This document shows, piece after piece, positions 110 to 54,697 of a stretch of DNA of 55,329 nucleotides. The stretch covers positions 1 to 55,329 of the IMG/VR virus record IMGVR_UViG_3300029199_000006. One strand, written 5' to 3'. The translations under genes and the position numbers were made by a program. Positions within the stretch are counted from its first letter, which is position 1. Every line of letters begins with the position of its first letter. Source of the DNA: a virus. Its lineage: Duplodnaviria > Caudoviricetes. The notes under the pieces are model-generated. The model had not been told where the DNA came from and did not search any database. It worked only from the letters and a program-made list of their open reading frames with translations.

Positions 110-1503
110 GGCAGGCCGAGACCGGCGAGTATCCAGCCACCTCCGGATTGATCGGCGGAGAGCACCTGGCTCGCGCCATTGCCGAAGCGCTGCGCGAAGC
201 CGTTACTCGGGTAGGTTGTTTGAAACACGGGACTGAACGGCTCCATCATCGCCCCTGCGCCGGTTGCTCCCCAGTGATCGGTGGCGGTGGCGACTCCGGA
301 GGTAAAATCCTTCATCGACGTGGCTTCCTTGGCGGCGCAAAAATCTCCGACCGTAGCCGCTCCTCCAGACGTATAGGCCGTGAAACCGGTGCTGTCCACG
401 CCGTCGAGGGTGATGGTGTTGGCATCGATGACGGTGAGCGTGTAGATTTTGTCGTTGAGCTCGGTCATGCCGCCCACGGAGGTAATCATTACCGGATCGC
501 CCGTGGTGCGGCCGTGACCGACGACCGTCAACTGGCAGGGATTACCCTGGGTCGCGGCGGTGATCGCCTTACTCGCGGCAACGCATGTGACGCCAAGGCT
601 GATCTCGTACATCAAGCCGTTCAGATCCGCCACTCCGCAGGCCTGGCCGTTGTGCGTGGTTTTCGCAAACGGTGCGCCGCTGCCGGTTTTGCCGCAGTCA
701 GAATAGCCGTCAGAGGTGTAACTAACTGCGCCGTCGTTGATATCTCCCAGGGCGTTATTGTTGCACCCCTTTGGGAAATTGCTGACGCCTGCGGCATCGT
801 ACCAGGCGCAATTGGTGGTGCCCGTAGCGGCTTGGCCGTGGGCGAGGGAGAGCATAGCCAGCGCCCCATAAATAAACCGGCTGCCGCAGAAAAATTGACT
901 TGAGGGATTGATCGCCCCGTCCACACCATCCCTCGCCTTGCAGGCATTGACAGCCTCGTAGTAGGCGTTAGCGCCGCATGCAGTCAATTCGGCTATCGGG
1001 TTATGGGCAGCAGATGTTGATAGTGGGAGACCTCCAGGGATGGCAGAGGCGACGAATCCAGAACCCAAGGCATTTTTGCTCGCCATGTATTTATCAACAA
1101 AAAAGCCGTCCTGCTCAACTCCGCCGTCGATAAACGCACGGTGCAGGGCGTAGCCCTGGGCTTCGGCGTCAAAGCGCGTGGGGTAGGTTTTGACTCCCCT
1201 TATGTCGATGGAGTTGACACCGTGGGCCGCGTAGGTGGGGTTATCGGCGTGGCCGACGCGGGAGTAGAATTTAGGCACCCAGACCATGATGGAGCCGTCG
1301 GCGTAGCGGTAGTTGCCGTGATTCTGGTGGGTCGGGTCGGTGTAGCCGTACATCGGCACCATGCCAGGGAGCAGAGCCTCGGGAGGCGCTACGCCAACGC
1401 CGAACCCTGCGCTGCCGGGGTCTCCGATGGAGTTGAGGACTCCGATAATTTCGCCGATGGCGGCGTCGAGTTGTGCGCCGGTGTAGCTTAGCTGATAGCC
1501 CAT
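1..1503 (-). CDS. DGR target protein, N-terminal 501 codons (Mtd-like receptor-binding protein, C-type-lectin/FGE-like fold); continues at 55220-55119, total 534 aa
   Basis: Hand translation from ATG 1503 (GGAGG upstream): MGYQLSYTGAQLDAAIG...GFFVDKY...GVADLNGLMYE...NELCLLSCAGWS, open to base 1. Not in the ORF track because it runs off the edge. Confidence 0.93.
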   Translation of the reverse strand, partial: MGYQLSYTGAQLDAAIGEIIGVLNSIGDPGSAGFGVGVAPPEALLPGMVPMYGYTDPTHQNHGNYRYADGSIMVWVPKFYSRVGHADNPTYAAHGVNSIDIRGVKTYPTRFDAEAQGYALHRAFIDGGVEQDGFFVDKYMASKNALGSGFVASAIPGGLPLSTSAAHNPIAELTACGANAYYEAVNACKARDGVDGAINPSSQFFCGSRFIYGALAMLSLAHGQAATGTTNCAWYDAAGVSNFPKGCNNNALGDINDGAVSYTSDGYSDCGKTGSGAPFAKTTHNGQACGVADLNGLMYEISLGVTCVAASKAITAATQGNPCQLTVVGHGRTTGDPVMITSVGGMTELNDKIYTLTVIDANTITLDGVDSTGFTAYTSGGAATVGDFCAAKEATSMKDFTSGVATATDHWGATGAGAMMEPFSPVFQTTYPSNGFAQRFGNGASQVLSADQSGGGWILAGLGLPKDTNGASTSGTNLFGADYFYQYVRNELCLLSCAGWS

Positions 1504-1647
1504 CTATGTTTCCTCCCTTTTGACTTTTAGTGTAGCGCCGTCTGCCGCATATACTTTTTCGTGTGAACCTGCGCCGTTGGCGACATAAAGATTATATTTT
1601 CGACTGAAGTTGTTGCCGCCAAGATTTAAACCAAGTCCTAATTGCAT
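1504..1647 (-). CDS. Small tail-region protein, 47 aa (MQLGLGLNLGG...)
   Basis: GAGGAG SD; stop abuts the target-gene ATG; LGLGL-type N-terminus as seen in phage tail proteins. Confidence 0.6.
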   Translation of the reverse strand: MQLGLGLNLGGNNFSRKYNLYVANGAGSHEKVYAADGATLKVKREET

Positions 1648-5661: not shown

Positions 5662-6438
5662 TTAGGTGGGCGCAACGGCGGCTGTATCAATGGCGTAAGC
5701 GCCAAAGTCGAGGCCGTTGAACGAGCACTTCTTGAAGCCCCAGATGCACGACGTCGAAATGATAATCTCGTTGTCGTTGTCCTCAGTGCCTTCGTACCAA
5801 TCGAAGCGCAGACCCACGCCGCCCTTGCTGCCAAAGGCCACCGCACCTGCCTGACGGCCCAGGAACAGGGCACGGGCTGCGGCCACGTCGCTACCGCTGC
5901 CGTAGTCGTCGAAGCGGACAATGCCCTCTTCTTCCTGCAGCACGACGTTGTTGTACATGCCCAGGCCCCCTTTAAAAATGGGGTTGTCCTTGCCCTGAGC
6001 GGTCACAGCGGCTTTTTGCAGATCCAGCCAATCACCGGTTTCGGCGCTGGTCCGCAGGTCAGTTGCCTGCTGCGGATTCATCATGCAGACGAAGTGTTTC
6101 TCGCCGTTAATCATGATGGGCTGCAGTTTGGGAACGCCCTTGGTGCCGCCACCCATGAGCTTGACGGCAGTGACTACCGCGTCAATGTCTGCCAGGGTCA
6201 TCTTGTCGGTTGCGGCCAGTGTCGCCTTGGTGGTGCCGCCACCGTAGCGGATATGGTAGCTGTCCGGGGCGGTCAGGCTGTTGTTGGCGCGACCAGTCCA
6301 GTCCGTGCCATAGACAAAATCGTCATTTACACCGCGAGCGCCGGACAGGTACATGAAGATGCTTTCGGAAAAAGCCCGTGCCCACCATTCGGCCATCCGG
6401 GCCTTGGCCACCTTGCGCATCGAGTGAAGCGTCCGTTT
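5662..6438 (-). CDS. Major capsid protein (N4-gp56 family), exon 2
   Basis: KRTLHSMRKVAKARMAEWW...NPIFKGGLGMYNNVVL...ALFLGRQA; splices in frame to exon 1, giving 368 aa. Confidence 0.93.
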   Translation of the reverse strand, partial: KRTLHSMRKVAKARMAEWWARAFSESIFMYLSGARGVNDDFVYGTDWTGRANNSLTAPDSYHIRYGGGTTKATLAATDKMTLADIDAVVTAVKLMGGGTKGVPKLQPIMINGEKHFVCMMNPQQATDLRTSAETGDWLDLQKAAVTAQGKDNPIFKGGLGMYNNVVLQEEEGIVRFDDYGSGSDVAAARALFLGRQAGAVAFGSKGGVGLRFDWYEGTEDNDNEIIISTSCIWGFKKCSFNGLDFGAYAIDTAAVAPT

Positions 6439-7380
6439 CCTTTATGTTCGGCGAGGGCCGCTAGTTCCTCGCCCGCCCAATCGGGCAGCTTACGGTTTCC
6501 CGTAAGAGCAGACTATATCTTGAACCTCTAAACAGTGAGGCTCCCTGGCACTTCGAGCCGCTTGGCTCTACTCCCTTGCGGGATAGTCGTTGAAGGTTCT
6601 TCCAATAGGTCTTGCCACCTCACTGCGTGGGCCGAACAGTCAAAACTTTCGTTCGATCCCTTGATGAGGTTGATCGTCGCAGGCAAATACTGAAGGTTTT
6701 CCGGCTTATGCTCCCCGCCCTTGTCCAGTGGCACGATATGGTCCACGTGGTACCCATCAGGACGGTGGAGATAAACAAGACGGATTTTTTTCAGGTCAGA
6801 AGGGCTGCAAGGCAAAGTGCTCTTCTTTAAAGCCCTTCTCTTCGCGTGGGCTGCTAAACGAGCAGCCCGACCTTCTTTCGTTTGCCGGTACTCCGCGTCG
6901 CAAAGAGCTTTCTTCTTTCTTGCGACGGGATCATTTCTCAGCCTGCGATTATTGGCCTGCACCTTGTAAGCCGTGTTCGCCGCCCTGCAAGCATCACACT
7001 TGCAATAGCGGTAACCGGTTTTGGTGCCGTGCGGGTACTCTGGATGGTCCAGCGGCATATCAAGAATTTTTCGGTATGCCGGAGACTTCACACCTTTTTG
7101 AGACAAATTGTAGTCGGCCTTTGCCCTGCGACAGTCGTAGCAGCGACAACCCTTCTGATATCCGCTCAGCTTTCCATGCGGATATTCCGGGTGGCTTGTG
7201 TCTCTGATGTAATTTCTCTTTCCCATTGGAAGCTTCCCTGCTGATTACCCAATCCGCGATATTTTCAGACCGTCACGATTGCCTTTACAGGCTGCGTTGT
7301 GGTTATCGCGGCTCTAAGGGCTTTCCAGCAATTCACCAGGTTTTCATCAACACATTGCTGTGTTAAGCCGCTATTTCATA
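6439..7380 (-). ncRNA. Group I self-splicing intron (IA-like), 942 nt
   Basis: P AATTGCTGGAAA, Q AATCAGCAGG, R CTTCAACGACTA, S AAGATATAGTCT; P1 CCGU/UAUGAAAUAGCGG with U-G at the 5' splice site; P9 GAAA hairpin; terminal G. Confidence 0.93.
6528..7226 (-). CDS. Intron-encoded HNH homing endonuclease
   Basis: YHVDHIVPLDKGGEH.PENLQYL..TINLIK; two N-terminal HPEYPHG..GY..C.C..CR.A repeats. Confidence 0.9.
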   Translation of the reverse strand: MGKRNYIRDTSHPEYPHGKLSGYQKGCRCYDCRRAKADYNLSQKGVKSPAYRKILDMPLDHPEYPHGTKTGYRYCKCDACRAANTAYKVQANNRRLRNDPVARKKKALCDAEYRQTKEGRAARLAAHAKRRALKKSTLPCSPSDLKKIRLVYLHRPDGYHVDHIVPLDKGGEHKPENLQYLPATINLIKGSNESFDCSAHAVRWQDLLEEPSTTIPQGSRAKRLEVPGSLTV

Positions 7381-7710
7381 ACGGGTCATTCTGCCGCCGC
7401 CATTGACACCACCGCGCATCTGGTCGATATAGACCGAATCGCTGTAGAACTTCAGGGGTTCTTCGGTGCCGCGCTGCTTGTTGTCGCCTTCAATCGGCGC
7501 CTGCTTGAGCTGTACGCTCAAATCGTAGGTGATCTGTTCCCCCGCATCGTTCTGCAGTTCATCGAGCTGCACGATGGGGGCCTGAGCCTCTTCGCCCTTA
7601 CCGATGTACTTCCGGTTCCAGGGGTTTTGACGAGCGACGTCGATGGCCAGCATTCCGGAATAGCGCTTGACCGCCTTGGCGTCACCCAATCCAACAATCG
7701 TTCTTGCCAT
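7381..7710 (-). CDS. Major capsid protein (N4-gp56 family), exon 1
   Basis: MARTIVGLGDAKAVKRYS...DAGEQITYDL...EGD...GTEE.L.FYSD.VYIDQMRGGV..GGRMTR, 110 codons. Confidence 0.93.
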
Positions 7711-7779: not shown

Positions 7780-7947
7780 TTAGGTTTTGTCCTTGCCGCC
7801 GCGCTCAACGCGAATCGTTTTGCTGGCGGTAATCTGCAAGCGGGCTTTGCGCCCGGTTTTATCGGTCATGCGAACGCTGGCCCCACCGATAATCACGGTT
7901 TGTCCGGCTTCCAGGTCAATGTAGAGCCTGCGCTGATCGTCGGTCAT
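7780..7947 (-). CDS. CsrA/RsmA-like micro-protein, 55 aa
   Basis: MTDDQRRLYIDLEAGQTVIIGGASVRMTDKTGRKARLQITASKTIRVER matches the CsrA beta-strand pattern; ATG overlaps the scaffold stop; below the ORF-track cutoff. Confidence 0.6.
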   Translation of the reverse strand: MTDDQRRLYIDLEAGQTVIIGGASVRMTDKTGRKARLQITASKTIRVERGGKDKT

Positions 7948-13272: not shown

Positions 13273-13813
13273 CCCCGGCCCCTTGCTTTGCCGGAACGAC
13301 AATTACCCCAATAGGTGCCCCATCGGCCCCGGTGTGCTCTATCCGGTCCTTGAACATGCCGAGAAACTTCCCGATCAACTCCAGGTTCTTGGTCTTGTCG
13401 GCTACCTTGATTTTGACCTTCTTAACCTCTCGGCACTCTTCGCCTCGCCCTTCCGTGTACTCGTCTACCTGAATTTCGGTAAGTGCAGCGGCCTGCTCCC
13501 TGGTCAACTCAGACAAATCGACATAAGCCGTTCCGTCCGGCTGTACCGTGAAAAAGTCGGCCAAATTTGAAAAGGCGAGCTTGGACAATTCGGCCAGTAC
13601 CCGCTCTTGGGTTATTTCGGTCTTCTCCTGGATCTTGCGTTGACGCTTTGACACAGCTTCTTGAATTTCAACATTTCTCAACAGTCGTTCGCCCTGCTGC
13701 CCCGCTGTCTTTTTGCTGTACCCAGCACGGATAGCTGCCTGCGTGGCGTTCAGGTCCACCAGGTACTCATCCGCAAACCGCTGCTGCTTTGGTGTCAACT
13801 TCTTCACTGTCAT
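13259..13813 (-). CDS. terS: Terminase small subunit
   Basis: LTPKQQRFADEYLVDLNATQAAIRAGYS...KTKNLELIGKFLGMF. Confidence 0.95.
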   Translation of the reverse strand: MTVKKLTPKQQRFADEYLVDLNATQAAIRAGYSKKTAGQQGERLLRNVEIQEAVSKRQRKIQEKTEITQERVLAELSKLAFSNLADFFTVQPDGTAYVDLSELTREQAAALTEIQVDEYTEGRGEECREVKKVKIKVADKTKNLELIGKFLGMFKDRIEHTGADGAPIGVIVVPAKQGAGDGGA

Positions 13814-13821
13814 CCTGAAAA

Positions 13822-13860
13822 ACAAAAAGCCCGATAAAGCCTAATTGGCTCTACCGGGCT
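13822..13860 (-). terminator. Intrinsic terminator in the terS leader
   Basis: AGCCCGGTAGAGCC...GGCTTTATCGGGCT followed by TTTTGTTTTT. Confidence 0.7.
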
Positions 13861-14075
13861 CCGACCGCACCGTGAGGGGATCGTAGATTCCGTTGTTCTG
13901 ATTTTATCGGGGAGGCGGCAGCGCTACCAATAGGCCCGTCGGCCTACCATCCTTTTACAGATGACCTCCCCTTTCCTGGGGGGTGTTCTTAGCAAGCTTC
14001 GTCTCTCCGGCGCTAGACCCGTCACCCTAGGCATTAATGCGCGCCTCGCGCAACCGGAGAGACAAAACTCAAAAG

Positions 14076-14339
14076 CTAATCATGCAGAGACCGGTACAGA
14101 ATGTCTAACGCCAGCATCGCCACAAAGCACAAGGCCGAATAAACCCACTGGCCATCAAGCGCAAAAACAATAGTGGCAAGCGCCAGCCCGGCAGAAGACA
14201 AGGTTATGATGGCCAACACAAGCCGACGCAGAGTCTTGAGGATTTCTCCCACCAGCAGCCCCGCAACAAACGAGACTCGTTTCCTCCCGCCGTTCCCGTA
14301 ATCGGTCGTAGCCATTCCGCCCTGCCCCCTAAAACTCAA
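14076..14339 (-). CDS. Small membrane protein
   Basis: Two or three hydrophobic segments. Confidence 0.55.
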   Translation of the reverse strand: MSFRGQGGMATTDYGNGGRKRVSFVAGLLVGEILKTLRRLVLAIITLSSAGLALATIVFALDGQWVYSALCFVAMLALDILYRSLHD

Positions 14340-14520
14340 AGGCCACTCGCGGCTTGTTCGGCATCCCGCCGCAATTCATCTGCACCCGGATGGTCAATTC
14401 CCCGGTAAAGTCCTCCCCGGCCATTTCGACGGCACGGGGCAGCAGGTCGCGGACTTTACCGCAAACCTGATCCACGGCCCGATCCACTGCGATCTGCGTT
14501 TTGACCTTCATTCCGCCCAT
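14329..14520 (-). CDS. Small protein, possibly YezD/DUF2292-like
   Basis: FTGELTIRVQMNCGG beta-hairpin pattern; GGAGG SD; sits just upstream of the late region. Confidence 0.5.
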   Translation of the reverse strand: MGGMKVKTQIAVDRAVDQVCGKVRDLLPRAVEMAGEDFTGELTIRVQMNCGGMPNKPRVAFEF

Positions 14521-14659
14521 GCACCCTCCGGTTTATTGTCCCTGTCCACCCGCATTCTCTCAGAAAATTCACGCAGATGCAATGATATGGGGGGTAAACG
14601 TTTGCCTCATGGTTGGCGCTCTCTTTCGTCCATCAATCCTCCTTTAAAAATATTCCTTT

Positions 14660-15016
14660 TCATCCATTGCCATTGCCTCCTATCACGGTTGCCTTCGGAA
14701 AAACCTCTTCGAAAAACATTGAGATATATTCCATTGACTCTCCGTCATCGATGCGGAACGGTATCTCTACCCCTGTTTCGTGTTTCAGAATCATGTCATC
14801 TTCGCTTGCGTCAAAATCAGAATCTCGCATCACGAGGTATATGCCGGTTTGCGGCCACCCTGTTTTCGCGGCTATCCGTTTCCACCATGCTATTTTGTTC
14901 CGCCGTTGCTCTGCTTCATATTCCCCGTCAGGGTAGCAATCTTCCGGCCCCCATCCCTCGTTTCTCAAATCTCTCACCATAAAACCTCCAATAAAATCGG
15001 CTAACCAGCGGGTCAA
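14660..15016 (-). CDS. Hypothetical protein
   Basis: Acidic ORF; likely start MVRD after GGAGG. Confidence 0.6.
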   Translation of the reverse strand: MTRWLADFIGGFMVRDLRNEGWGPEDCYPDGEYEAEQRRNKIAWWKRIAAKTGWPQTGIYLVMRDSDFDASEDDMILKHETGVEIPFRIDDGESMEYISMFFEEVFPKATVIGGNGNG

Positions 15017-21031: not shown

Positions 21032-21550
21032 TCATGGGGTCGCCTCCTTAAAGTCATACCTGCGGTATTCCCCGGTCTTCCACCCCGTCAGCCGGGTACG
21101 TTTCGTAAACAACCGTTCAGCCACCGTCGCGGACGTTGCCCAAGGCCCTGCCGTTCCACATCCGGCACAACACAGTCGCGTCTCTCGCCTATGCGTCTGC
21201 CGGCTGACCGGGCCGTGACAACGGGGGCAGGTTGGCGTGGCTGCCAGCTTCCATATTTTGATTTCCCGTGCGTGGTTGCTGGTCAGGCGGCTTTTCGTGC
21301 GGCCTATGCAGCAAAATTCCTTGCTCTTAAAAACGGCCCCGAAAGAATTGCAGTGCCGCGGGGCAATAGCGAGTTTGTCAAACACCTCCCGCACATCGTC
21401 CATCGTGACCTGGCCGTTCATTTCCGCCAGTTTGCGGGCGATATTGCGGGCCGATCGCACAAAGTCCTCGTTGTGCAGTTCCACCGATTCCAGGCCCATG
21501 TCCCGCAGGATTTCGCCTTGGGTCTTGTCGTATATGGATAGTTGGCTCAT
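21032..21550 (-). CDS. Hypothetical protein with C-terminal Zn ribbon
   Basis: Coupled ORF; CPRC...C..CG. Confidence 0.6.
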   Translation of the reverse strand: MSQLSIYDKTQGEILRDMGLESVELHNEDFVRSARNIARKLAEMNGQVTMDDVREVFDKLAIAPRHCNSFGAVFKSKEFCCIGRTKSRLTSNHAREIKIWKLAATPTCPRCHGPVSRQTHRRETRLCCAGCGTAGPWATSATVAERLFTKRTRLTGWKTGEYRRYDFKEATP

Positions 21551-22227
21551 TGGCGATACTCCTCTGGCAAATAACGATCGATTCCTTTCTTCTCCGCCCA
21601 TGCCAGCAGTTCAATCGGCGGCAGTTCGTTCAAATGCTCGTAGCCCGTCGCGGTCTTGATCGACAGCTTGGCCCACGATTCCACCGTTTCCACCGCCCAC
21701 CGGTTCAACAGTTCCCGTGCTTCGTACTTGTCTGCCTTGCCGGTCAGAGCACATATTCCCTGATCGTGCTGCACCTGGTTGTGGTGGTGGTCGCACAAGG
21801 GTAGGGAATGGTAGGGAGGCTTGATCCCGGTCCCGCTACCAGCCGCCACGCTGCGCACATGAGCGGCCACGTTTGGCGGCTCGGCTTTGCACTTGCGGCA
21901 GGGCTGTGTGCGGACCCACTTTAGAAATGTTTCGTCGGTGCCCACCGCTCTCCATACTTCCGGGTTGCGGAAAAAGCCGGATTCGTGAAGGCGCTTGGCC
22001 TGTTGCCCGTAGGGGGCTGATTCCTTGATGAAATCGTTTTGCTGCTGCCTTCGGGCAACGTCCTTCGGCATCAGCGCCATGGCGCCCACGGTGCCCTTCC
22101 TGCCGAAAAGCCGCATCACGTCAATGGCGTCCTTTGGCTCGATATCAATAGTCAAGCGGACTGTTGAATCCACCAGCGTTTTCAGCGTGTGTGTCGTGAA
22201 GGCTATTGCAACGGTTTGGTTGCTCAT
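21547..22227 (-). CDS. DUF968/Ref-like HNH-fold protein
   Basis: FLKWVRTQPC..C...AHVR...GTGIKP...LPLC..HH. Confidence 0.7.
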   Translation of the reverse strand: MSNQTVAIAFTTHTLKTLVDSTVRLTIDIEPKDAIDVMRLFGRKGTVGAMALMPKDVARRQQQNDFIKESAPYGQQAKRLHESGFFRNPEVWRAVGTDETFLKWVRTQPCRKCKAEPPNVAAHVRSVAAGSGTGIKPPYHSLPLCDHHHNQVQHDQGICALTGKADKYEARELLNRWAVETVESWAKLSIKTATGYEHLNELPPIELLAWAEKKGIDRYLPEEYRQ

Positions 22228-27296: not shown

Positions 27297-27336
27297 AAAA
27301 AGCGGCCCCTGCCGCAAGGGGGGTGCGACAAGGGCC
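27296..27336 (-). terminator. Terminator at the end of the lysis operon
   Basis: GGCCCTTG...CAGGGGCC stem followed by a T run. Confidence 0.55.
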
Positions 27337-27359: not shown

Positions 27360-27563
27360 CTACCGTAATGTTTCAAACTCTGTCTGACACTCTACGCAGC
27401 GGTGACAGGTCGGGACCGCCCGCCGTCGCGCTTCGGGTATCGGCTCGTCGCACTCGATACACACCGCTGTGCCCGTGCCGCTTCGCTGTTTTCGGCGCCA
27501 GTCGGCCAGGGCATCCGCGTGATAGTTGTCCGTCACTTCTCCCGCTCGATCCAGATCATCCAT
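27360..27563 (-). CDS. TraR/DksA C4-type zinc-finger protein
   Basis: MDDLDRA...CIECDEPIPEARRRAVP.C.RCVECQ. Confidence 0.9.
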   Translation of the reverse strand: MDDLDRAGEVTDNYHADALADWRRKQRSGTGTAVCIECDEPIPEARRRAVPTCHRCVECQTEFETLR

Positions 27564-27587
27564 TCCAAAAGCCTTCACGTCAACGGG

Positions 27588-28166: not shown

Positions 28167-29334
28167 TTGAACCTCCCCATGGATAAATCCAGGGGATTCC
28201 GGTTGTGAGTCATCAAGCGACTCTCCGTTCGAGGGTCGCTCCGACCCCAGCAATGAGGGTGTTGATCGCGGCATTTACGTCTCGATCATGGTGCGTTCCA
28301 CACGCTAAACACTCCCATTGCCTTACTGACAGCCCTGCTAGACCTTGTGGCCCGGATAGGCATCCACAACCCGAGCAGGTTCTGGTGGAATTACGACTGG
28401 CAACTTCGAGATACTGCCTACCGCCTGTACGGCACTTGTAGTCGAGCATTGCTCTAAGCTGTCCATGACTAGAACTAGCCACTGACTTGCCAAAACCCGC
28501 ACGGGATAATCCCCGCAGGTTGTCTTTACTAAAGACTATGACGGCGTTTTCTGATACCAGCCGTCTTGATAGTTTATGGTTCCGATCTTTGCGCTGATTC
28601 GCTATCCTCTCGTGTAGTCGAGCTACCTGCTGACGGTTAATTCCCCGCTGCGCCTGACCTAACCGCTGTAAGCTTTTCTGCAGTTCCCGCGGATGGTCTA
28701 TCTTTTCTCCACTGGAAAGGGTCAGCAGATGTTCATATCCAGGATCGATTCCGACCGCCGCATCTCCTGTTTGTGGAATAGCATTAGGCTCTGCATCAAT
28801 GAACAAGCAGAGATACCATCCCGAAGCCTTGCGCACGATCCGTCCACATTTTATCCGCCCTTCGGGCAACTCCTGCTTGTGATAACGGACGGATTTTAGT
28901 CCTGGGAGCTTAATTCTGAAATCCACAGGTCTTCTGATCGGATCAGGGAATGGGATACTGTTGAGCCTGTTTCGCATACCTTTTAACCTTGGCTTCCTGC
29001 GGACCTTCTTGAAACATTGCTTCCAAGACTGATGAGCGAGAGACAGCATACCTTGGATAGTATGGGATGGTATTTCCAAGGTTCCGCTAGTCCCGGCTAG
29101 TAGGTTCTGAAAGTCCTTCGGGGAGTAATACTGACCCCCCTGAGAATCCAATTCGATCTTCCGAATAGCCCAGTTCCAGATAGAAGTGAGCGTTGGCAAC
29201 CACCCCAGCAAGGAGGCTTCTTGCTTCTTCGTTAGTTTTAACTTGAGTTGTCGTTGAATCATGAATTCCTCCTTCCTGTCGGAATTGGTCGCTAGACCCC
29301 ATAGTTAAAACTAGGGGATTGCGCTCCTGTTTTG
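28167..29334 (-). mobile_element. IS200/IS605-family element, tnpB only
   Basis: Subterminal hairpins CCCCTAGTTTTAACTATGGGG and CCCCTGGATTTATCCATGGGG; right end TCAA; removal restores a 50-aa ORF (29466-29335 + 28166-28146). Confidence 0.9.
28213..29262 (-). CDS. tnpB: TnpB with atypical RuvC-II
   Basis: VGIDPG, CSGCG/CLACG zinc finger, HDRDVNAA; RuvC-II reads VIVFSKDNL. Confidence 0.92.
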   Translation of the reverse strand: MIQRQLKLKLTKKQEASLLGWLPTLTSIWNWAIRKIELDSQGGQYYSPKDFQNLLAGTSGTLEIPSHTIQGMLSLAHQSWKQCFKKVRRKPRLKGMRNRLNSIPFPDPIRRPVDFRIKLPGLKSVRYHKQELPEGRIKCGRIVRKASGWYLCLFIDAEPNAIPQTGDAAVGIDPGYEHLLTLSSGEKIDHPRELQKSLQRLGQAQRGINRQQVARLHERIANQRKDRNHKLSRRLVSENAVIVFSKDNLRGLSRAGFGKSVASSSHGQLRAMLDYKCRTGGRQYLEVASRNSTRTCSGCGCLSGPQGLAGLSVRQWECLACGTHHDRDVNAAINTLIAGVGATLERRVA

Positions 29335-29452: not shown

Positions 29453-30019
29453 TTATCGGGACTCATTGCGGCCCCACAGCAACAGCGCATCGGCAATCGC
29501 CAGCGCCATCCGGTTCTGGTTCCACTCATCAGACAGCCAGCGGGCGTCGTCCGCATTGCTGATAAAACCCATTTCCACCAGCACCGCAGGGCTTTTCGTA
29601 TTGCGAAGCACATAAAACGGGGCTTCCTTGTCAGGATCACCGTCGCTGTAATCAGCCCGGAACAACAGACAAGAGAACGACCGCCGCAGGGCCTGGAAAA
29701 TCTCTGTGGCCAAGGGGTCCGCTGCCGTCTCCCCCGGCGAGGTCCAGACTTCCACGCCACGGGCCGTGATATTGACTGCCGCGTTGCAATGCAGGGAAAT
29801 AAAACAGTCCGGGGCCAGTTGCCGCTCAAGAGCGCAACGTCCCGCCAGGGTCGGGTAAACATCCCCTACCCGTGTCGCAGAAACCGCCACCCCCATGGCC
29901 TGCAGGATGGCGAACAGTTTATTACTCACGGCCAGGGCTATGTCTGCCTCTCGCAATCCGTTGGCGGAAACCGCGCCGGGATCTTTCCCCCCATGTCCGG
30001 GGTCCAGCAAAACTTTCAT
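29453..30019 (-). CDS. Endolysin, N-acetylmuramoyl-L-alanine amidase (Amidase_3)
   Basis: LDPGHGGKDPGA, E, FISLHCNA, PAVLVEMGFISN. Confidence 0.95.
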   Translation of the reverse strand: MKVLLDPGHGGKDPGAVSANGLREADIALAVSNKLFAILQAMGVAVSATRVGDVYPTLAGRCALERQLAPDCFISLHCNAAVNITARGVEVWTSPGETAADPLATEIFQALRRSFSCLLFRADYSDGDPDKEAPFYVLRNTKSPAVLVEMGFISNADDARWLSDEWNQNRMALAIADALLLWGRNESR

Positions 30020-30355: not shown

Positions 30356-30370
30356 GCGCCTCTCTTCAAA

Positions 30371-30413
30371 AACGAAAAAAGCCCGGCGCGAATCGTTAAG
30401 ATTCAGGCCGGGC
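30371..30413 (-). terminator. Intrinsic terminator in the lysis leader
   Basis: GCCCGGC...GCCGGGC followed by TTTTTTCGTTTTT. Confidence 0.7.
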
Positions 30414-30553
30414 CTCTGGCTCACCGCAAGGGGCCATTGGGTTCCGAAGGTTATTAGTTGCTGTTATCTTGGCACGTTATGCGCTGTAGATCAAGTCCTT
30501 TGATGGGCTTTTGACATCCTCCCCGGCCTGAAGGCCGGAGATTCCTACGACGC

Positions 30554-31774
30554 TCAGGCGCAGCTCAATGCCGCGCCTGAGCCGTTTCGGCGAGTTCCTG
30601 CTGCTGGCGGTATTGCTGCACCGCTCACTTCACAGGCGAACCGGGCGTGTCCCGCCCTTAGAACATTGATCGCGCCGACCAGATCGGCGTTTTCCTCGAA
30701 GCCGCACTCGACGCACGCAAACTGCGCCTGCGTCTTGCGGTTGTCCGCGCTGACGTGCCCGCAGCACGGGCACGTCTGGCTGGTGTAATGCGGTGGCACA
30801 GCAACGAGCCAACCGCCGTTCCACGCCAGCTTGTAATCAAGTTGGCGGCGAAACTCGAACCAGCCTTGGTCGAGGATGGATTTGTTCAGGCCGGATTTGG
30901 CCCGAACGTTTTTCCCAGGCGCTTCGGTTGTGCCTGCCGCCGACTTGGACATATTCCGAACCTGCAAGTCCTCGATACACACCATCGCGTGGTTTTGGCT
31001 GATCGCGGTCGAGGTCTTGTGCAGGTAGTCGCGGCGGGCATTGCCGATGCGGGAATGGATACGCTGGACTCGGGCCTTGGCCTTCTTCCAGTTGTTGCTG
31101 AACTTCACCTTGCGGCTCATCGCCTGCTGCGCCTTGCGCAAGGCAGACTCATGCCGCTTGAAGCTGTTGAGCGGCGCATAGACGGTGCCGTCCGAGAGCG
31201 TGGCGAAGCGGGTCACGCCCATGTCGATACCGACGGCATCGCCTTGCGGTACGGGTTGCTCGACCTCGCGTTCCGTCTGGATCGACACGAACCACTTGCC
31301 GCACGACTGGCTCACGGTGACGTTCTTCACCGCTCCGAGTACGTCCCGGCTGCGGCGATAACGCAGCCAGCCCAGCTTGGGCAGGAAGATTCGGCTGTTG
31401 GACTGGTCGAGCTTGATCTGCTTCGGGTCGGGGTAGCGGAAGCTGTCGCGCTGACCCTTCTTCTTGAAGCGCGGGAAGTCGGCCCGCTTGGCAAAGAAGT
31501 TGGCGTAGGCCCGCTCCAAATCCTTGAGCGTCTGTTGCAAGGGATGCGTTGGTGCATCCTTGAGCCACGGCGTTTCCGGGCCATTGCGCCACTCGGTGAG
31601 CAGCTTGCACAGTCCCGCATAACCAAGCTTCTTCTCGCCGCGCTCGTAGCGTTCCTTCTGCAACGCCAGCGCCTTGTTGAACACGAACCGGCACGATCCA
31701 GCGAAGCGGCGCATCTGCCGCTCCTGCTGGCCGTCTGGGCGTAGCTCAAACTTGAAGGCTTGAAGTCGTTGCAT
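30554..31774 (-). CDS. tnpB: TnpB RNA-guided nuclease
   Basis: VGIDMG, VCIEDL, YTSQTCPCCG, NADLVGA: intact D-E-D. Confidence 0.96.
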   Translation of the reverse strand: MQRLQAFKFELRPDGQQERQMRRFAGSCRFVFNKALALQKERYERGEKKLGYAGLCKLLTEWRNGPETPWLKDAPTHPLQQTLKDLERAYANFFAKRADFPRFKKKGQRDSFRYPDPKQIKLDQSNSRIFLPKLGWLRYRRSRDVLGAVKNVTVSQSCGKWFVSIQTEREVEQPVPQGDAVGIDMGVTRFATLSDGTVYAPLNSFKRHESALRKAQQAMSRKVKFSNNWKKAKARVQRIHSRIGNARRDYLHKTSTAISQNHAMVCIEDLQVRNMSKSAAGTTEAPGKNVRAKSGLNKSILDQGWFEFRRQLDYKLAWNGGWLVAVPPHYTSQTCPCCGHVSADNRKTQAQFACVECGFEENADLVGAINVLRAGHARFACEVSGAAIPPAAGTRRNGSGAALSCA

Positions 31775-31796: not shown

Positions 31797-32210
31797 ATGA
31801 GCGATGACAACGATATTCGACATGGACGGCACTGTGTTTTCAAGATGCACGTTCACTTGGTCTTTGTGGCGAAGTATCGCCGCGCAGTGTTTGATGGCGA
31901 CGCCATCGACCGCTTGCGCTTGATCTTCGCCAAGATCTGCGCCGACTTCGAGGCGCGGCTGATCGAGATGGACGGCGAGGACGATCATGTTCATCTGCTG
32001 GTCGAATACCCGCCGAAGGTGGCGGTGTCGAATCTCGTGAACAGCCTCAAGGGCGTGTCCAGCCGCTTGCTTCGGAAGGAGCGGCCCGACATTCAGAAAC
32101 GCTACTGGCGCGGCGTCCTGTGGTCGCCGTCATACTTTGCGTCGAGTTGCGGCGGCGCTCCAATCTCCATCGTGCGCCATTACATCGAACAACAGCAGAC
32201 GCCACACTGA
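31797..32210 (+). CDS. tnpA: IS200-type Y1 (HUH) transposase
   Basis: HLVFVAKYRR, DHVHLL, LWSPSYF, YIEQQ. Confidence 0.97.
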   Translation: MSDDNDIRHGRHCVFKMHVHLVFVAKYRRAVFDGDAIDRLRLIFAKICADFEARLIEMDGEDDHVHLLVEYPPKVAVSNLVNSLKGVSSRLLRKERPDIQKRYWRGVLWSPSYFASSCGGAPISIVRHYIEQQQTPH

Positions 32211-32404: not shown

Positions 32405-35400
32405 TCACAGCTTGATCCTTTCATATGCAAACTTGTAAATCTCTTTGCGCTGTAAACTCAACTGGTCCAGCCTCCGCCGCTTCTCTTCGGCACTCATGCG
32501 GGCGTCCATGTAGATCAACCGTTCTTGTTTGCGCAACAACGAAAGCCTGCTGTTTACCATATCGATGAATCGACGATAGCGCATCGGCGGGCTCATGGCC
32601 AATTTTCTGGCCTGCTGGTAATCCCCGAGCTGCTTATAATGGCTGATCGTCGCCGCCAACTCGTTCACTTCGCTGGCAAATTCATAATACCGGGTCGCGT
32701 ATTTGGTCCGGCCTATCTCACTCCGGACAAAGCGCCCCAGGCCGGGCAGGTCGTTAATGGTTTTGGCCGGGCGGGAAGGCGATTCGTTGCCCCACCGGTA
32801 AGCGGCATCGGCAACCCCCAAAAGGGTGGAGCCCAAAACCGCGAAGTGCCCCTGCACCATGTGCTCCATCTTGATGGGCGAAACGCCCAAAGTCCGGCCC
32901 ATGTCTTTTAAGATTTCCGGGGTCCACGGGTTTGCCCGTTCACCTGCAGGCAGCCGCTGCAATGACATGCCTTCCAAGGGCCTGCCGGTAAACGCACTCT
33001 TGTTGGCGTAGACCTCCAGAGACGGAGCGACGGCAGCCGGGGCGCCCACTGAAAACGTCTCAGTCAGGGTGTGGCGCAAGAACCGCAAGAAGAAATCATA
33101 TTCTTCATCCCCGGTCAATACTGCTGCGGCACTTTCGGCCAGGGTCGAAAACAGCGCCCCGACCTCAAAGGCTTTCGGGATGCGGAAATGTTGGTCCCCG
33201 ATCCAGAAATGATGGTACTGCCACTTCTCCCAATCTTCAAGGTCTTTATACCGATCATCGTCATGGTACAGGCTCCACAGCAGCAGAGAGGCCGCCGACA
33301 CCAGAGCCCCTTTAGCGAGAAACGCTTTCGGGTCGGCCTTAGCCCCACGGTACATCCGGTCCATGCCCTGAATACGAGCGTTCAAGAACGGTGTCACCAT
33401 CGACAACACCCGCACCGCATTGCTGGCGCCGGTACGGTAGAAGTCCAGCAGGTCCCGCGCTTCATAGGCCGCCTTGAGATTGCTTTCCCCCTTAACCTTG
33501 AGGTTGGTATAGAGTTGAACGCGGGCCGCCATTTCCGACGCATGGCCGGTGCGCTCCCAAAACTCCAGCATTTTGCGCGGGGTGTCCAACAGGGTGCCCT
33601 TGCTGCCCTTGCCTTCGCGCTTAACGATCTTGTTGATATGCCGGGCCATAGCTCGGGGGTCGCCAGAATCCACCCACCCTTGCCCAAACCCGCCACCGGA
33701 CGCCATCAGGGCGATATAGTCCGGAGACTCTTTCCAGACCTGAACCAAGCCCCTGCCGGTATCCACAAACGGTGCAAAGGACTTGGAAACAACCGCCGTG
33801 TGCAGGGTGTCGCGAAGCATGTTGGCGATTCGGAACGAGGGCGAAATGGTGGCCCCCACAGTCAGCCATCGTTTCGGCGCCCCGAGCATCTTCAGGACCA
33901 GCGAATTGAAAGACTTCGCGTTGGTTTCGGCCAGGGCCTCGAATAAAAGCTCGTCGCTTACCTTTAAGAATACCGCTTTGCCGTCCTCTTGAAAGCTGAT
34001 AACCGAGTTTTCTTTTCGTGCGCCGGGCGACTTAAAGAGTTCGTTGCCAGCCACCCTTTCAGCCAGCCCCATGTCAACCGCCACTTCGGCAGCCGTAGCG
34101 CGGGCCACGTTGCGCTGGCTCTCCTGGATCAGGTGCGACCAGTTGCGTAAAATGTTTTCAATCGGATCGCCGATCTTTTCCGTGCCGCCCTCAAGCCGTT
34201 TGATCTGCGCCGAAATGTGCTTTTTGCTTTTCTGTGGAGAACTGATAAATTCGTCCTGGCTCAGCGGGTCTTCCATGATGCGGTAGAAGGGCAGATAAAA
34301 ATCCCGCATCCAGGCGTCTACCTGTTGCTGAGAAACAAGCCCGGCCTCCATGGAAATGTCGATGATGTTTTGGTTGTAGGCCTGAAACTCCTTATTCAAC
34401 TGCTCAAAGGATTTCTCTTTTGCGGCCCTCTGCTCAGCGGTCAGCCCGGCAAACACAGAATCAAGGACCCCTTGCCGCTTCTCTGGAGTCAGCCAGTTCT
34501 CCCGGCCCTCTGCTTCCAGTTTCTCCGCTCGTTTAACAGCGATCCAGTAAAACAGGTTGCGCCCGTCAGCCCCGATCTTGTGCAGCCATGGAAGGAACCC
34601 TTGCCCCTTCTCTTTGACGGAAAGAACCCCTTGGTCCCATGACAGCCGCCCGTGCTGCAGAAACGTGGAAATCGTTGCATGGGCGTTTCCGAGCAAGCGG
34701 TGTTGCATGTAGGCGTCCTGCCCCAACTGCTCGATGGGGTGCATCCGGTCCACCAGTTTGGTCCGTGCCGCGCTGATCGACTCTTTGCGGTCAACCTCTT
34801 TGGCCTTCCGGAACACCCCTTTAAGGGCGCTGAGATAGGTGTGCTGCTCGGGTACGTCGAACACGTCCGAGATAGCCATGGCCACGGGTCTTGCTGGCGG
34901 TGCAACCTTCGGTGCTTGTGGTTTGGCTGCCGGTTTGGCTGCCGCTGGCTTTACTGCTGCCCTCGGCGCTTCTGCAGGACTTGCCGCAGGCTGCGGAGGT
35001 GGCTCCACGTCCACCTCACTTCTCAACTCCTGCACCTTGGCCAGCAGGGCGGTCTTTTCGGCGCTGTTTGGCATGGCGTCGGCCTTGGCTTGCAAGGCGG
35101 CGATTCGGGCCGGGGTGGTTTTGCGGGCGTAGGATGTAGGCTCATAGACTCCGGACCTGTCGAATGTTGCAAGATTGAGCGACTTAACGGCCTCTTTGCT
35201 TAGCCCAAGAGACTCCCGCTTCTCATAAGCAAGTGCGTCAAATTCTTCTCTCAGATCTTCAAAAGAGCGCAGTTTGCCTACCGGCCTAGCCGTTCCTACG
35301 TCAATGATTGGCTCGCCGTCAGTGCCATCAGCTATTTTCTCGCCAGTCACGAAATAGGCGTACTTCGCCGGGTACTCAGGCTTGTCAGCTACCGAAAGAC

Positions 35401-38400
35401 CGTATTCAGTCTCGCCGTTGGCGTGATTCATGGACCCGCGATGGGTGCCGTTTTTTAAATGGTTAAAATCCTCCTTCTGGTTGGTGGTGCGGACATAAAC
35501 ATTTTCATCCAGCGGCGACAAAAACCTCTGTACTGCGCGGGGCAGAATCCGGCTGTTCACCAAATCCGGGTCCTTGAGAAACACTTTGTCGGCGAACAAA
35601 ACCGCTTCCCCGTCGATGATCTGGATGTTGGCCGGGCCGTCATGTGGGGCAATTTTGACCGCTGCGCCGCCGAAGGAACCGCGCTTATTCTTTAATTCAT
35701 CCTTCCGCTGAAACGCCATCGCCTCGCCTCCGTGAACAAAGGTAACTTCTTCACCAGAAGTTATATACTTGTCCACGTTCGCAATCAAGTTCCGCAACTC
35801 GGCTTTCGACAATTCGAGATTCGAGAATACCGAACGCACCCACTCCCGCACCTTGGCGATTACGCTGTCGATAAACTTGTGCGCCTTGTTCTGCCGCACC
35901 ATATCGACCAGCACTTCCTCTGCGGCCATCAGGCGGCTTGCGTGGGTGTTCTCGATCTTGTGGGCCTTGAGATAGTCGGCCACGTCCTTATTGAACAGCA
36001 TGGCCGCCTGCGCCAGTACCGGCTTCTTGTTGCCGCCCAGGACGTGTTCTAAGCCAAGGTGCCGGGTTTCGTGGATCAGCGCCCGTTGTGCGTCTTCCAT
36101 GCTGGTCAGGTTATCCGCGACCAGATGGACGTTGCCCTTCCAGTATACCCCGTCAAAGGCTCCGTTCATCTGCTCGCGCTCGATGGCGGCTTGCAGGTCC
36201 TGGGGTAGTTGCGTTTCCGACTGGACCAGATTGACCTTGCCGAGTGCGCCGGGGAGTTTGGTCAGGCTGTCTTTCAGACCGGCAGAGAGGTCGGCAAGGG
36301 GAAGACCGGTGCCGGTGTTGCGGGAGAATCTGGTGTTTTTCCCGCCCTTGGCATACTCCGTCAAAACCTCGGCGGCCACAGATTCGGCCTTATTCGCGTT
36401 CTTGAAGAAAATATCCAGATTGTAATCGGCGCCCTGGATCTTTTGCACAATGCGCTTCACCGCATCGAAAGCGGCCCTAAATAACTCCGGGCTTTTCGCG
36501 TAGAGTTTCTGCCAAAAACTCTTGTCAGTGAGCTTGCCGCCGATAAACTCCGCTGCGTATTCCTCCATCAGTTCAGCGTCTGTTATCTCCACGCCATAAC
36601 TATCTTCGACAGCTTGCCGCATTGACTGGAAGTGCGGCTCGTTCACCGCCACGGCTTCAAGGAACTGCTCGTACAGGTCGGGGCGGTCCTCCTTTATGGC
36701 GTGAGTCAGTTCATGCCCGAACAGGGTCAGGTGCGGGACCGGCGTCGAGACGTTGACGAAAATTGTGCCGGGAAGTTTCGGGTCAAAAAAGCCCGGCAGG
36801 CCCGATAAATCTTCTCTCGTCGTCTGAAACACCACGATCTTTTTCTGAAAAACTCCCGCCAGTTTTCCAAGGTCGTCCAGGTCAGTTCGTTCCCATAGAT
36901 CGACACTTGCGGGTTCAACTTCTCTACCAGCCGCACGAGAAAGGGAGGCCGTGAGCTCTTCCACTCTTTTTTGGTCTGTAACAGGTGCAGATGTCTTGTC
37001 ATCGGCCATTCCTTTGCCTTCGGGGGAGAGATAGCCTGCCCCGCGATGCGGGAACAGGGCGGGCTTGCGGGAGAAGGCCGGAGCGTCTTTGTTGATAACA
37101 ACCAAACTTGTCGCCACCCCGGTCGGACGCTCGGCGCTCTTGAAAGATCCGTCAGGCAGTTCCTGCACCTCCCCACCAACGTCTTCAATCCACTGGCGGA
37201 ACTCTGTAGATTGCCGGTCGTTACGGAAGAACGGACCCCGGCTCATAATGGCGACCACTTTCCCGTCCTGTTTCAACAGATCGTAAGCATGGCGCACATG
37301 GGCCATATCCTGCCCGTTCTCAAAGGGCGGGTTCATCAAGATGCGGTCGTATTCCCCGGACTGCTCCAAGAAGTCCTGCCCCACAACGTCATAACCTTTT
37401 TGCTGCAACAGATCGGCCAAAGTGCTGTTGTATTCCACCACTTCCGGGGTGAAGCCTGCTTCGCGGATAGCGTCAGCAATATTCCCTTTGCCTGCGGACG
37501 GTTCCAACACCTTCAGGCCTTCTTGAAGGTCGGCCAACTCGATCATATCCTGCACGATATTCTTCGGTGTCGGGAAGAACCCCGGAATGGGTTTTAACGA
37601 AACTTCCCGCTCCAACTGCTTAATTCGGTCTGCTGCTGGCTTCTTGCCTCGATAGTTCAAGTATTCCCGCAGGGCCGCCCGCAAGGAGGGCAGATCAGTA
37701 ATGCCCATTTTCTGCCAGCGACCATAGGCTTGCAGTTGCTCTTTGATATTTTGAGCCGCGTAGGCGTCCAGCCCATTCGCCACCGCCTTGGATAAGGCGC
37801 GTTCTAACAAGGTAATATTCTCTGCCGTGGCAAAGGACACCACCGAGGTTCTTTCCTTATCGGTAGCCTGCCACAGTTTCCGCAATCTGGCGGCGTCCTG
37901 TTTACCCCCGGATTTCCGCTCCAAGAAGGTGAACAACTCCCGGACGTGGGACTCGTGAACGGAGGGATAAGGATATTTGGCGTTCTGGATATCTTCTAAG
38001 GAAACTTCCCGCTCTTGCGATTGGGCATAAGAGATATTATTGGCCCGCTCGTATTCCCGCTTGGCGGCTCGCAGTGCTTGGTCAAGGGCTTCAATGTGCG
38101 TCTTAGCCCGCACCCCGTCAAGGTGGGTGGCTTCTCCGCTTTCGATGGCCGCCGAAAGGTTCCTCATGGTCTGCGCCATCGCTACATCAGCGCGGGCTGC
38201 GGCTTCGGCAGAACCGGCCATTCGGGCCATGCGGTGCGTGTGGGTCTTGCGGTCCTGATTCAGTGAGGCGTTGGCTTTTTCTTCCAGCGCGGCGGCCATC
38301 TCAGCGAGGTTGGCAGCGGCGTTCTGTTTGACCGACTCCTGCCGGTCCTGTACCCTGTCGGCCTTTGAAACATCACCCTCTTTGAGAGCCATAAAACTTT

Positions 38401-45660: not shown

Positions 45661-45671
45661 TGAAGTCTCCA

Positions 45672-45717
45672 AAACGCAAAAAGCCCGGCCACCCCCGCTA
45701 TGGGTATTGGCCGGGCT
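45672..45717 (-). terminator. Intrinsic terminator in the ejection-operon leader
   Basis: AGCCCGGCCA...TGGCCGGGCT followed by TTTTGCGTTTT. Confidence 0.72.
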
Positions 45718-45809
45718 ATCAGGCGTTCCGCTGGTCGCGGGTCCGTCAGTCACCGATTCGGGCTATAGAATTTTCCTATTTTCCCACGAATACACTCCAA
45801 AGTAAACCG

Positions 45810-53056: not shown

Positions 53057-53485
53057 TCACAACCCCAACATCGTTCTCTGCCCTCTGCCCCAGGCCCTTA
53101 CTTCCTCGATAAACGCCTGATACTCTGCGATCAGGGCCGGTTCGTGCGGTTCCATCGCATATGCGCCGGACAGAGCGCCGACGGCAATGCGCGTCAGATA
53201 CATCTCATCCTCGCTGCAATACTTTTCGCGGATTTTGTCCTGCATCCGTTGATAGATTAGTCTGCACTGTGGGCTTGCGGTTTTAATCTGCTCTCGCAGT
53301 TCGGGGGTCAGGTCTGCCGGCTCCACGGTGATTTGTGGCGGCTGAGGCGGTAGTTCTTCGGGACCGCAAAAATAGACGTAACCGTCCTCAAGTGTGCAGA
53401 GCTCCTGCACCGGTGCTTCTTCGCTTCCCTGGGCGCGGTAAATCGTGTAGGCGTCGGATACGGGCTGGTAGCGGTAGATTGTCAT
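53057..53485 (-). CDS. Hypothetical protein downstream of the DGR RT (tail-assembly-like)
   Basis: AAGGAG SD; IREKY..EDE...EY.AFIEEVR.WGR..R..LGL; overlaps the RT 3' end by 98 bp. Confidence 0.75.
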   Translation of the reverse strand: MTIYRYQPVSDAYTIYRAQGSEEAPVQELCTLEDGYVYFCGPEELPPQPPQITVEPADLTPELREQIKTASPQCRLIYQRMQDKIREKYCSEDEMYLTRIAVGALSGAYAMEPHEPALIAEYQAFIEEVRAWGRGQRTMLGL

Positions 53486-54437: not shown

Positions 54438-54560
54438 TTGGCCTCCGGTCTTCGGCTTAAGCCTACCAAAAGGAGGCTGATATTCGATTTCGCGTAACGC
54501 GGGACAGCGCATCCCTGAGACTTCCACTGCACGCATCTAGCGTCTTGAGGATGAAAGTGT

Positions 54561-54675
54561 CAGTCCGCCCGGAACCCGACATTGTTGTTCGAGTTCGTCC
54601 GGTTGTTGTTCCAATTGACCGCCGACACGCCCGCGTTGGAACTAGTGCTCCAACCCGCGCACGAGAGCAGGCACA
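54561..54675 (-). repeat. DGR template repeat (TR)
   Basis: 115 bp, AAC/AAT-rich, between avd and RT; differs from VR only at adenines. Confidence 0.96.
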
Positions 54676-54697
54676 CGCTGAGGCACTGCCCCTTTGG

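Follow-up and report, generated by a model that had tools for sequence, protein, structure and literature searches.

Twin-box terminator cassettes ahead of the packaging, lysis and ejection genes of an uncultivated podovirus as candidate sites of locally regulated read-through

The window analysed here spans the 55,329 bases of a viral record (IMG/VR record IMGVR_UViG_3300029199_000006) that is complete and bears direct terminal repeats; nearly all of its genes are carried by the minus strand. On this strand, the packaging, lysis and ejection genes are each preceded by a non-coding leader of the same build, in which two short tandem boxes run into a strong intrinsic terminator that ends a few nucleotides before the first start codon. 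From the comparisons presented below, we regard these three leaders as homologous control cassettes and not as chance matches. The reading that we favour, at slightly less than even odds (about 0.45), is that read-through of each terminator may be regulated locally, at its own cassette. A preliminary description of this DNA, made from its letters and a list of its open reading frames (ORFs) without database searches, had proposed an unrecognised late-gene antitermination element. Its view of the three leaders as related control elements agrees with their recurrence in the window and their conservation in orthologous leaders. Antitermination is a plausible, though inferred, function of such conserved cassettes, while the term "late-gene" proved too narrow, because one relative of the cassette heads an alpA-repO module.

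The motif initially noticed, CCC-N4-CGGTG-N9-CCCG, is present in exactly three copies in the window, all on the minus strand and each inside a non-coding leader (13855-13879, 30409-30433 and 45738-45762). Dinucleotide shuffles of the window (n=100) contained 0.02 copies on average and none of them reached three, so the placement of the motif is not random; the same pattern read backward had no match in the window. This statistic is generous, since the pattern was defined after the sites had been seen. The re-alignment of paralogous and orthologous leaders showed that two tandem boxes (YGGWR-N9-10-CCC) together make up the conserved unit; box 1 is better conserved, and box 2 ends in the first bases of the terminator 5' arm. 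The register of the motif first described needs correction: as written it mixes the two boxes, covering box 2 and the last part of box 1 at the first two sites, and box 1 at site 3, which had been aligned out of register. All three copies nevertheless represent one kind of box. In an alignment of ten leaders (A10), 21 columns are invariant, GG and CC positions of the boxes being among the invariant ones, the cassettes are 69-80 nucleotides (nt) long, and each of the ten has its terminator arm 32-39 nt away from where box 1 starts. The distance from box to box is not constant (20-27 nt), the centre-to-centre spacing varying by 7 bp. A composite expression describing the twin boxes matched three times in the window, again only at the leaders and on the minus strand, where first-order Markov simulations gave a mean of 0.076 matches (0/500 reached at least three); in 906 kb of other loci it matched only two leader types of a clade of related phages, described below and called here the G004 clade. 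Similarly, a covariance model of the cassette (R2) scored the three sites at 58-67 bits and the next full-length match in the window at 15 bits, and recovered only the G004 clade from 513 kb of other loci.

All three cassettes lie on the minus strand. Site 1 is the leader of terS (start at 13813, with an alternative GTG at about 13806; Pfam Terminase_2, 6e-42). Its box 1 was located at 13876-13892 by the composite twin-box match, the A10 alignment and the anchored table, and its box 2 at 13855-13872, which corresponds to the 3' part of the original motif and whose last four bases belong to the terminator 5' arm. The terminator (13818-13861; -26.0 kcal/mol, z -7.2) is formed by a 15-bp hairpin (13861-13827) and a T-run to 13818. 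At site 2, the leader of the lysis cassette, box 1 (30430-30446, from the twin-box match and the alignment) starts 20 nt past a predicted -10 element, and box 2 (30409-30426, in the region of the original motif) runs into the arm of a terminator at 30368-30414 (hairpin 30414-30380 plus T-run, -23.4 kcal/mol), directly behind which the first lysis-cassette ORF starts at 30355. At site 3, the leader of the ejection module, box 1 (45739-45755) is covered by the original motif, and box 2 (45712-45730) is a degenerate copy with an N10 spacer that also runs into the terminator arm; the terminator (45671-45717; hairpin 45717-45682 plus T-run, -26.9 kcal/mol) is directly followed by the first ejection-module ORF, starting at 45660.

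The strong terminator reported just ahead of each first start codon is thus found at all three sites, with -23.4 to -26.9 kcal/mol and z-scores of -3.6 to -7.2 against shuffled sequences. Between the end of the T-run and the start codon there are only 5-13 nt, which include a Shine-Dalgarno sequence, and no promoter fits into such a gap. A promoter hidden inside a terminator was also considered and rejected, as no credible -35/-10 pair was seen by eye. The final CCCG of the motif had been described as the terminator's own 5' arm in two cases, which holds for sites 1 and 2, while the motif of site 3 ends 21 nt earlier. A scan of the coding strand of the window found a single other compact terminator of such strength (27304-27336, minus strand, -24.2 kcal/mol), which closes the lysis operon ahead of the early region. 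It has no twin-box match and scores only 7.2 bits with R2. A strong terminator that lacks boxes where it merely ends an operon fits the local gating of the other three.

Three viral contigs encode a portal protein 75% identical to that of the window: G004 (locus L190), G005 (L191) and G006 (L192). The coding strand of G004 carries three terminators of the same type, before the gene in terS position, before the homologue of the first ejection gene and before the lysis cassette. Their proteins are distant from those of the window, with 36-38% identity for the ejection gene and 50% for the endolysin, and the gene behind the terS-type leader of G004 and G005 has no match to the window TerS at E<=0.001. 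Judged by these alignments, all three leaders are orthologously conserved while the surrounding proteins have strongly diverged, and the motif is kept in the orthologous leaders at all three positions in the G004 clade. A specific pattern scan of a metagenome collection returned three loci, all of them true cassettes (3/3): an ejection-type leader (L257), a terS-type leader with a homologue of the small upstream gene orf63 (L256), and a cassette at 1496-1574 (minus strand) of locus L255, on a 244-kb contig (NPIE01000008.1), ahead of AlpA-family and replication-protein-O-like genes. The orthologues L210 and L257 have a box 1 nearly identical to that of site 3, as does L255, a locus which may represent the early region of a prophage or satellite with the same switch. 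Scanning viral contigs for box 2 plus terminator gave 21 matches, of which only three were relatives and the others chance-like. The leader DNA had no match among GenBank phages, and four DNA runs compared with 13400-14700 yielded only short pieces of the terS genes of other phages, leaving the leader uncovered.

Sites 2 and 3 lie close to insertion sequences (IS), which raises the question of whether the motif is part of IS200/IS605 right ends or of their omega-RNAs. The window contains three insertions of this type, all on the minus strand (30511 to ~32280, 45913 to ~47190 and 28213-29262). At site 2 the element is complete and encodes a Y1 transposase (31797-32210, plus strand) and TnpB (30554-31774), the one at site 3 is TnpB-only (45976-47109), and the third is a more divergent TnpB (28213-29262) located inside the lysis cassette, between the endolysin and spanin genes. 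Identical TnpB copies are present in unrelated viral contigs (L086, L160). The two upstream tnpB genes end only 121 and 214 nt before the motifs of sites 2 and 3, and a weak HgcC-like Rfam match covers the 3' end of the first element, as would be expected from an IS origin. However, the alignment of independent copies places the right ends at ~30511 and ~45913, that is, 78 and 150 nt before the motifs, with unrelated flanks beyond them. Moreover, 104 TnpB loci, some of them with a TnpB 100% identical, all lack the motif, site 1 is free of IS, and the orthologous leaders of G004 and G006 carry the cassette without any IS. Right-end mapping, the TnpB loci and these IS-free leaders together rule out an IS or omega-RNA origin, to which we attach practically no probability, and they indicate that the IS elements inserted upstream of pre-existing leaders. 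The HgcC-family match itself (30502-30626, minus strand; 22.9 bits, E 0.11) spans the TnpB 3' end and the IS right end and is consistent with the omega-RNA of the element.

Upstream of the boxes, a custom scan predicted sigma70-type extended -10 promoters at site 2 (30466-30494; -35 at 30494-30489, -10 at 30471-30466), 17 nt downstream of the IS right end, and at site 3 (45778-45806; -35 at 45806-45801, -10 at 45783-45778), both on the minus strand. The predicted -10 elements end 20 nt (site 2) and 23 nt (site 3) before box 1. These are among seven sites on the minus strand and three on the plus strand listed by the scan, which was run without a shuffle control. Equivalent promoter-like elements were recognised by eye, at equal distance, in the orthologous lysis leader (L208), in L210 and in the relative L255. 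G004 and G006 have different genes upstream, yet their leaders become identical ~2-3 nt ahead of the -35 and stay so from there, which places a module boundary near this point; the cassette module thus seems to start at about the -35. Regarding a possible sigma-dependent pause element, several leaders show, by eye, weak -10-like hexamers in the stretch from the predicted -10 to box 1. The boxes themselves were considered as promoters recognised by an extracytoplasmic function (ECF) sigma factor or by sigma54, a reading that was rejected because, by eye, the spacings do not fit and are inconstant (20-27 nt between boxes).

These observations can be combined in the following model. RNA polymerase starting from the predicted promoters of sites 2 and 3 would by default produce a leader RNA of ~90-100 nt and then stop, while transcription would reach the terS cassette from a conserved promoter-like element farther upstream, after crossing a 63-aa ORF and, in two clades, also a four-way-junction RNA. 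Since essential genes start directly behind strong terminators, read-through is logically required, and the expression of the terS, lysis and ejection genes would depend on it. The boxes would constitute the element that is recognised. Since it is to the terminator arm that they hold a fixed relation, they would most likely be read on the nascent RNA. We infer a phage-encoded or phage-modified factor which, bound beside the 5' arm, would suppress that terminator locally, cassette by cassette.

Several observations weigh against this reading. Taken alone, the box region folds no better than shuffles do (z -0.75 to +0.54), no convincing consensus emerged from RNAalifold, and only seven of the ten leaders show, by eye, a well-formed small hairpin that pairs the end of box 1 with the beginning of box 2; it is possible that this hairpin between the boxes is conserved. 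Without significant structure in the box region, recognition at the level of RNA over that of DNA is a preference. The statistics of the patterns were obtained post hoc, leaders of the terS type have another upstream architecture with no promoter close by, and the candidate factors are all without functional annotation. The known cassette family is also small, with about four to five lineages. Finally, the two closest relatives of the window ejection gene (68% and 58% identity) have no cassette; in total it is missing from 16 of the 19 orthologous loci, the three with a cassette all belonging to the G004 clade. The genes downstream therefore do not need the cassette, which tracks the phage backbone rather than the downstream gene, as shown by the cassette-less closest relatives.

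The alternative pairing suggested earlier, in which the CGG of the motif would pair with the terminator's CCCG, comprises only 3 bp and found neither thermodynamic nor covariation support. Because of this short pairing, the missing consensus and a folding no better than that of shuffles, the boxes were treated as a primary-sequence element. Such an element could equally be imagined as a double-stranded DNA site for a phage transcription factor, either the operator of a roadblock repressor or a Q-like loading site. The absence of RNA structure is compatible with DNA recognition, and two direct repeats 20-27 bp apart recall phage 21, where two direct repeats form the Q recognition element and are occupied by two protomers (PMC6606751). 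The Q-binding element, however, is placed between the -35 and the -10 (PMC6606751), while the boxes occupy about +14 to +55 relative to the predicted starts. A dimer bound to DNA would not easily accommodate a centre-to-centre spacing that varies by 7 bp, neither a Q nor another late regulator of the helix-turn-helix type was found nearby, and the one fixed relation of the boxes is to the terminator arm, a feature of the RNA. We therefore hold a DNA site to be very unlikely.

The distribution of the cassette also has to be weighed against an explanation without dedicated regulation, in which homologous terminators at module boundaries would have been spread or homogenised by recombination, the genes behind them being served by leaky read-through and the boxes acting as a recombination linker or as a sequence that enhances termination. 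The cassettes are indeed located exactly at junctions with exchanged genes, since TerS is non-homologous to its counterpart in G004 and the ejection gene is closer to those of cassette-less phages; the unstructured box region points in the same direction. In addition, sites 1 and 2 are more alike within the window than their orthologues are, which suggests gene conversion. Nevertheless, specific positions are invariant in ten leaders while adjacent bases diverge, merely leaky terminators of -23 to -27 kcal/mol would be costly in front of terS, the gene in holin position and the ejection genes, and the terminator at 27.3 kb demonstrates that this phage can build a strong terminator without boxes. 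An origin of the cassettes without regulation thus appears improbable to us.

The leader of terS is more elaborate than the other two. In the window, it consists, in order, of a promoter-like element, a 63-aa ORF (orf63), a small hydrophobic ORF found in the window only, a four-way junction, the boxes and the terminator. The promoter-like element, read by eye as a sigma70 promoter with an extended -10 (TGn), lies at 14554-14582 (minus strand; -35 at 14582-14577, -10 at 14559-14554), and similar elements occupy the equal place, with equal spacing, upstream of the orf63 homologues of L190, L191 and L256. The gene orf63 (14329-14520, minus strand) is a candidate factor by its synteny. In L190, L191 and L256, all three other records in which this side is visible, a homologue with 42-47% identity immediately precedes the terS-type cassette, although their TerS is not homologous to that of the window. 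The same ORF had been put forward as a YezD/DUF2292-like trans factor. The family assignment could not be upheld, as orf63 matched no Pfam family at E<=1, DUF2292/YezD included, and no PHROG, and its AlphaFold2 model (pLDDT 71; one long helix and a beta-hairpin) had no fold match in the PDB at E<=0.001; what remains is its syntenic link, which concerns the terS leader only. The orf63 family comprises three clusters among 5.8 billion proteins. Searches with orf63 found no match among GenBank phages, no relative in metagenome contigs and one marginal fragment in genome contigs, and a protein-atlas search provided leads only. That orf63 acts as a trans factor is thus a conjecture, drawn from gene order.

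Between orf63/ORF87 and the terS cassette lies a 63-nt, cloverleaf-like four-way-junction RNA (13909-13971, minus strand), with 22 pairs in four helices. Across the window, L190 and L191 all 66 of 66 cells are paired, compared with 33-59% in slid controls, and seven pairs are changed on both sides; the presence of G-U pairs assigns the structure to the transcribed strand. Within 563 kb, a covariance model of the junction (R1) recovered no copies other than this one and those of L190, L191 and L192, so that besides the window it is present in the G004, G005 and G006 clade. No copy was detected at sites 2 and 3 or in other phages, and it is absent from L256, which keeps orf63 and the cassette. 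The covariation is good but thin evidence for the structure, coming from three sequences of which two are close. A tRNA or tRNA-like reading was rejected, with no gene called by ARAGORN and two arms ending in 4-nt loops, and the junction matched no Rfam family.

Two features of the neighbourhood of this leader in G004 are worth describing. At L190 1-200, a strong sigma70 promoter of consensus-like sequence lies ~230 nt upstream of that of orf63 and overlaps the beginning of a small divergent gene whose product was read by eye as a helix-turn-helix protein, and the orf63-terS unit of G004 may thus abut a repressor-type switch region. An int-alpA RNA (Rfam RF02996; 46.6 bits, gathering score 35.8) is located just past the first gene behind the terS-type leader, at L211 787-856 (corresponding to L190 ~1437-1506); the window has no such match.

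The composition of the terS leader suggests another arrangement, in which processive antitermination would be set once, at the orf63 promoter, where RNA polymerase would be modified, as it is by put or conAn, through the junction RNA, the 63-aa protein or both. A single long late transcript would thereafter extend across the three terminators, and the cassettes of sites 2 and 3 would mainly yield short RNAs, either as by-products or as small regulatory RNAs. With genes on one strand and direct terminal repeats, a transcript from the terS leader could reach the ejection and lysis modules, and the terS operon does begin with a conserved promoter and a small ORF, together with a structured RNA that covaries. 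In conAn, too, a long operon opens with a protein gene and an RNA element downstream of it (PMC8191782). A promoter, one or more hairpins and a terminator with a U-tail are what a small RNA usually consists of, and a terminated PR' leader acts as one (PMC7547250). On the other hand, L256 keeps orf63 and the cassette without the junction. Processive systems need no sequence beside each terminator, and here the boxes are conserved at all three and absent at the fourth; the terS cassette itself has boxes. We consequently rate a single processive event as unlikely, and continue to prefer local read-through at each cassette.

Regulators of known type were searched by comparing 80 ORFs with PHROGs and 94 queries with Pfam, some of them at E<=1, and no Q, N, sigma, RinA-type or NusG-like family was found, which agrees with the earlier remark that neither a Q-like antiterminator nor a late sigma factor was evident. 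Rfam 15 gave no match in the window at gathering score, and in six leader loci at E<=1 only the int-alpA RNA elsewhere in L211 and the weak HgcC match on the IS. A zinc-ribbon ORF (21032-21601) considered as a Q-like candidate provided weak leads only. Two further genes are possible regulators for which no tie to the leaders was found. One encodes a DksA/TraR-type zinc-finger protein (27360-27578, minus strand) and is the last gene before the box-less terminator; the other is a small CsrA-like ORF (7780-7947, minus strand), located between the gene in scaffold position and the capsid gene.

The anatomy of the cassettes can be compared with several characterised systems. Lambdoid Q control (phages lambda, 82 and 21), with its promoter PR', Q-binding element (QBE), sigma-dependent pause element and terminator tR', similarly combines a promoter (predicted here) with an intrinsic terminator within ~100 nt and with lysis or morphogenesis genes, and its default product is a short terminated leader RNA, as predicted for our cassettes. 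In contrast, no Q homologue was found here, the boxes begin 20-23 nt past the predicted -10, the terS copy has no adjacent promoter, and each of the three cassettes has its own boxes and its own terminator, whereas Q acts processively from one loading site. The cassette therefore fails the Q-defining features that were testable, namely the Q protein and the position of the boxes. Regarding lambda N and its nut sites, no conserved stable boxB-type hairpin was found in the box region, and the boxA consensus was not searched for. HutP, LicT/BglG, TRAP and PyrR represent antiterminators or attenuation proteins that bind RNA close to the terminator. The cassettes resemble these types in that short repeated single-stranded RNA motifs adjoin and overlap the terminator 5' arm in the leader, and in the local, non-processive control of each operon that we propose. 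They differ from them in box sequence and spacing and in their phage setting, and no homologue of the proteins or of their RNA targets was detected.

Among processive elements, put, a cis-acting RNA of about 70 nt that works without a protein, consists of two stem-loops and not of a four-way junction. The junction occurs only at the terS leader and is absent from L256, unlike the boxes, which recur at every cassette terminator, and no sequence or Rfam relation to put or conAn was found. The likeness to HK022 put and to conAn lies in the structured RNA and small ORF at the start of the terS operon, with terminators to cross (PMC9378689, PMC8191782). The predicted product of sites 2 and 3, ~90-100 nt with a terminator hairpin and a U-tail, is comparable to lambda 6S RNA and StxS (PMC7547250).

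A more specific proposal can be derived from these comparisons, in which the cassette would be the cis element of a previously undescribed, non-processive type of antitermination. A small phage protein would read the YGGWR...CCC boxes on the nascent RNA and block closure of the hairpin, the orf63 family being the best candidate by position. The operons headed by cassettes would switch together, including the alpA-repO module of another mobile element, which could in this way sense the phage, and the four-way junction would be a second new RNA element of the same switch. We consider it doubtful that this detailed version is correct, and distinguish it from the more general reading of locally regulated read-through.

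The remainder of the genome provides the setting of these leaders. The head and packaging genes encode a P22-type portal, the small and large terminase subunits, SU10-type adaptors and the capsid protein, and the terminase DNA shows only a distant likeness to that of F116-like Pseudomonas phages. Behind site 2, the lysis genes include a spanin and an amidase endolysin (29453-30019, minus strand; PHROG 5.5e-44, Pfam Amidase_3 7.5e-45). Behind site 3, the ejection ORFs match phrog_610, 611, 596 and 594, and the module terminates with a 3354-aa polyvalent protein (32405-42469, minus strand) that has methyltransferase-like and LPD38 domains. The window also carries tail-fibre genes, a replication and recombination block and a diversity-generating retroelement (53388-55096, minus strand), composed of an Avd-like accessory protein (54698-55096) and a reverse transcriptase (53388-54536) and positioned upstream of the tail and internal-virion genes.

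The major capsid gene is split (7363-7710, 6528-7226 and 5662-6420, minus strand), with an HNH endonuclease ORF in between; the N-terminal 115 aa and the C-terminal 252 aa match consecutive stretches of one capsid profile, and the arrangement looks like an intron or another intervening element with a homing endonuclease. It is at the boundary of this element, within coding sequence at the start of the second capsid segment, that the weak full-length R2 match mentioned above is located (6367-6444, minus strand; 15.3 bits, E 0.009). It includes a terminator-like hairpin and a T-run, and is probably due to chance.

The timing of late transcription in tailed phages is understood in a few models, with Q, N, put, late sigma factors and Ogr/Mor-type activators. 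Instead of one of these known types of late control, a strong terminator and a conserved pair of boxes front the packaging, lysis and ejection genes of this phage. If the terminators are gated as we propose, the cassette would be a compact control part of ~75 nt that can be moved between operons, and it would offer a testable entry into the transcription control of uncultivated podoviruses with P22-type portals. It would also explain how the genome tolerates IS605/TnpB insertions between its modules, since the cassette terminator insulates the genes downstream. The four-way-junction RNA of the terS leader is a separate candidate for a new family of structured RNAs.

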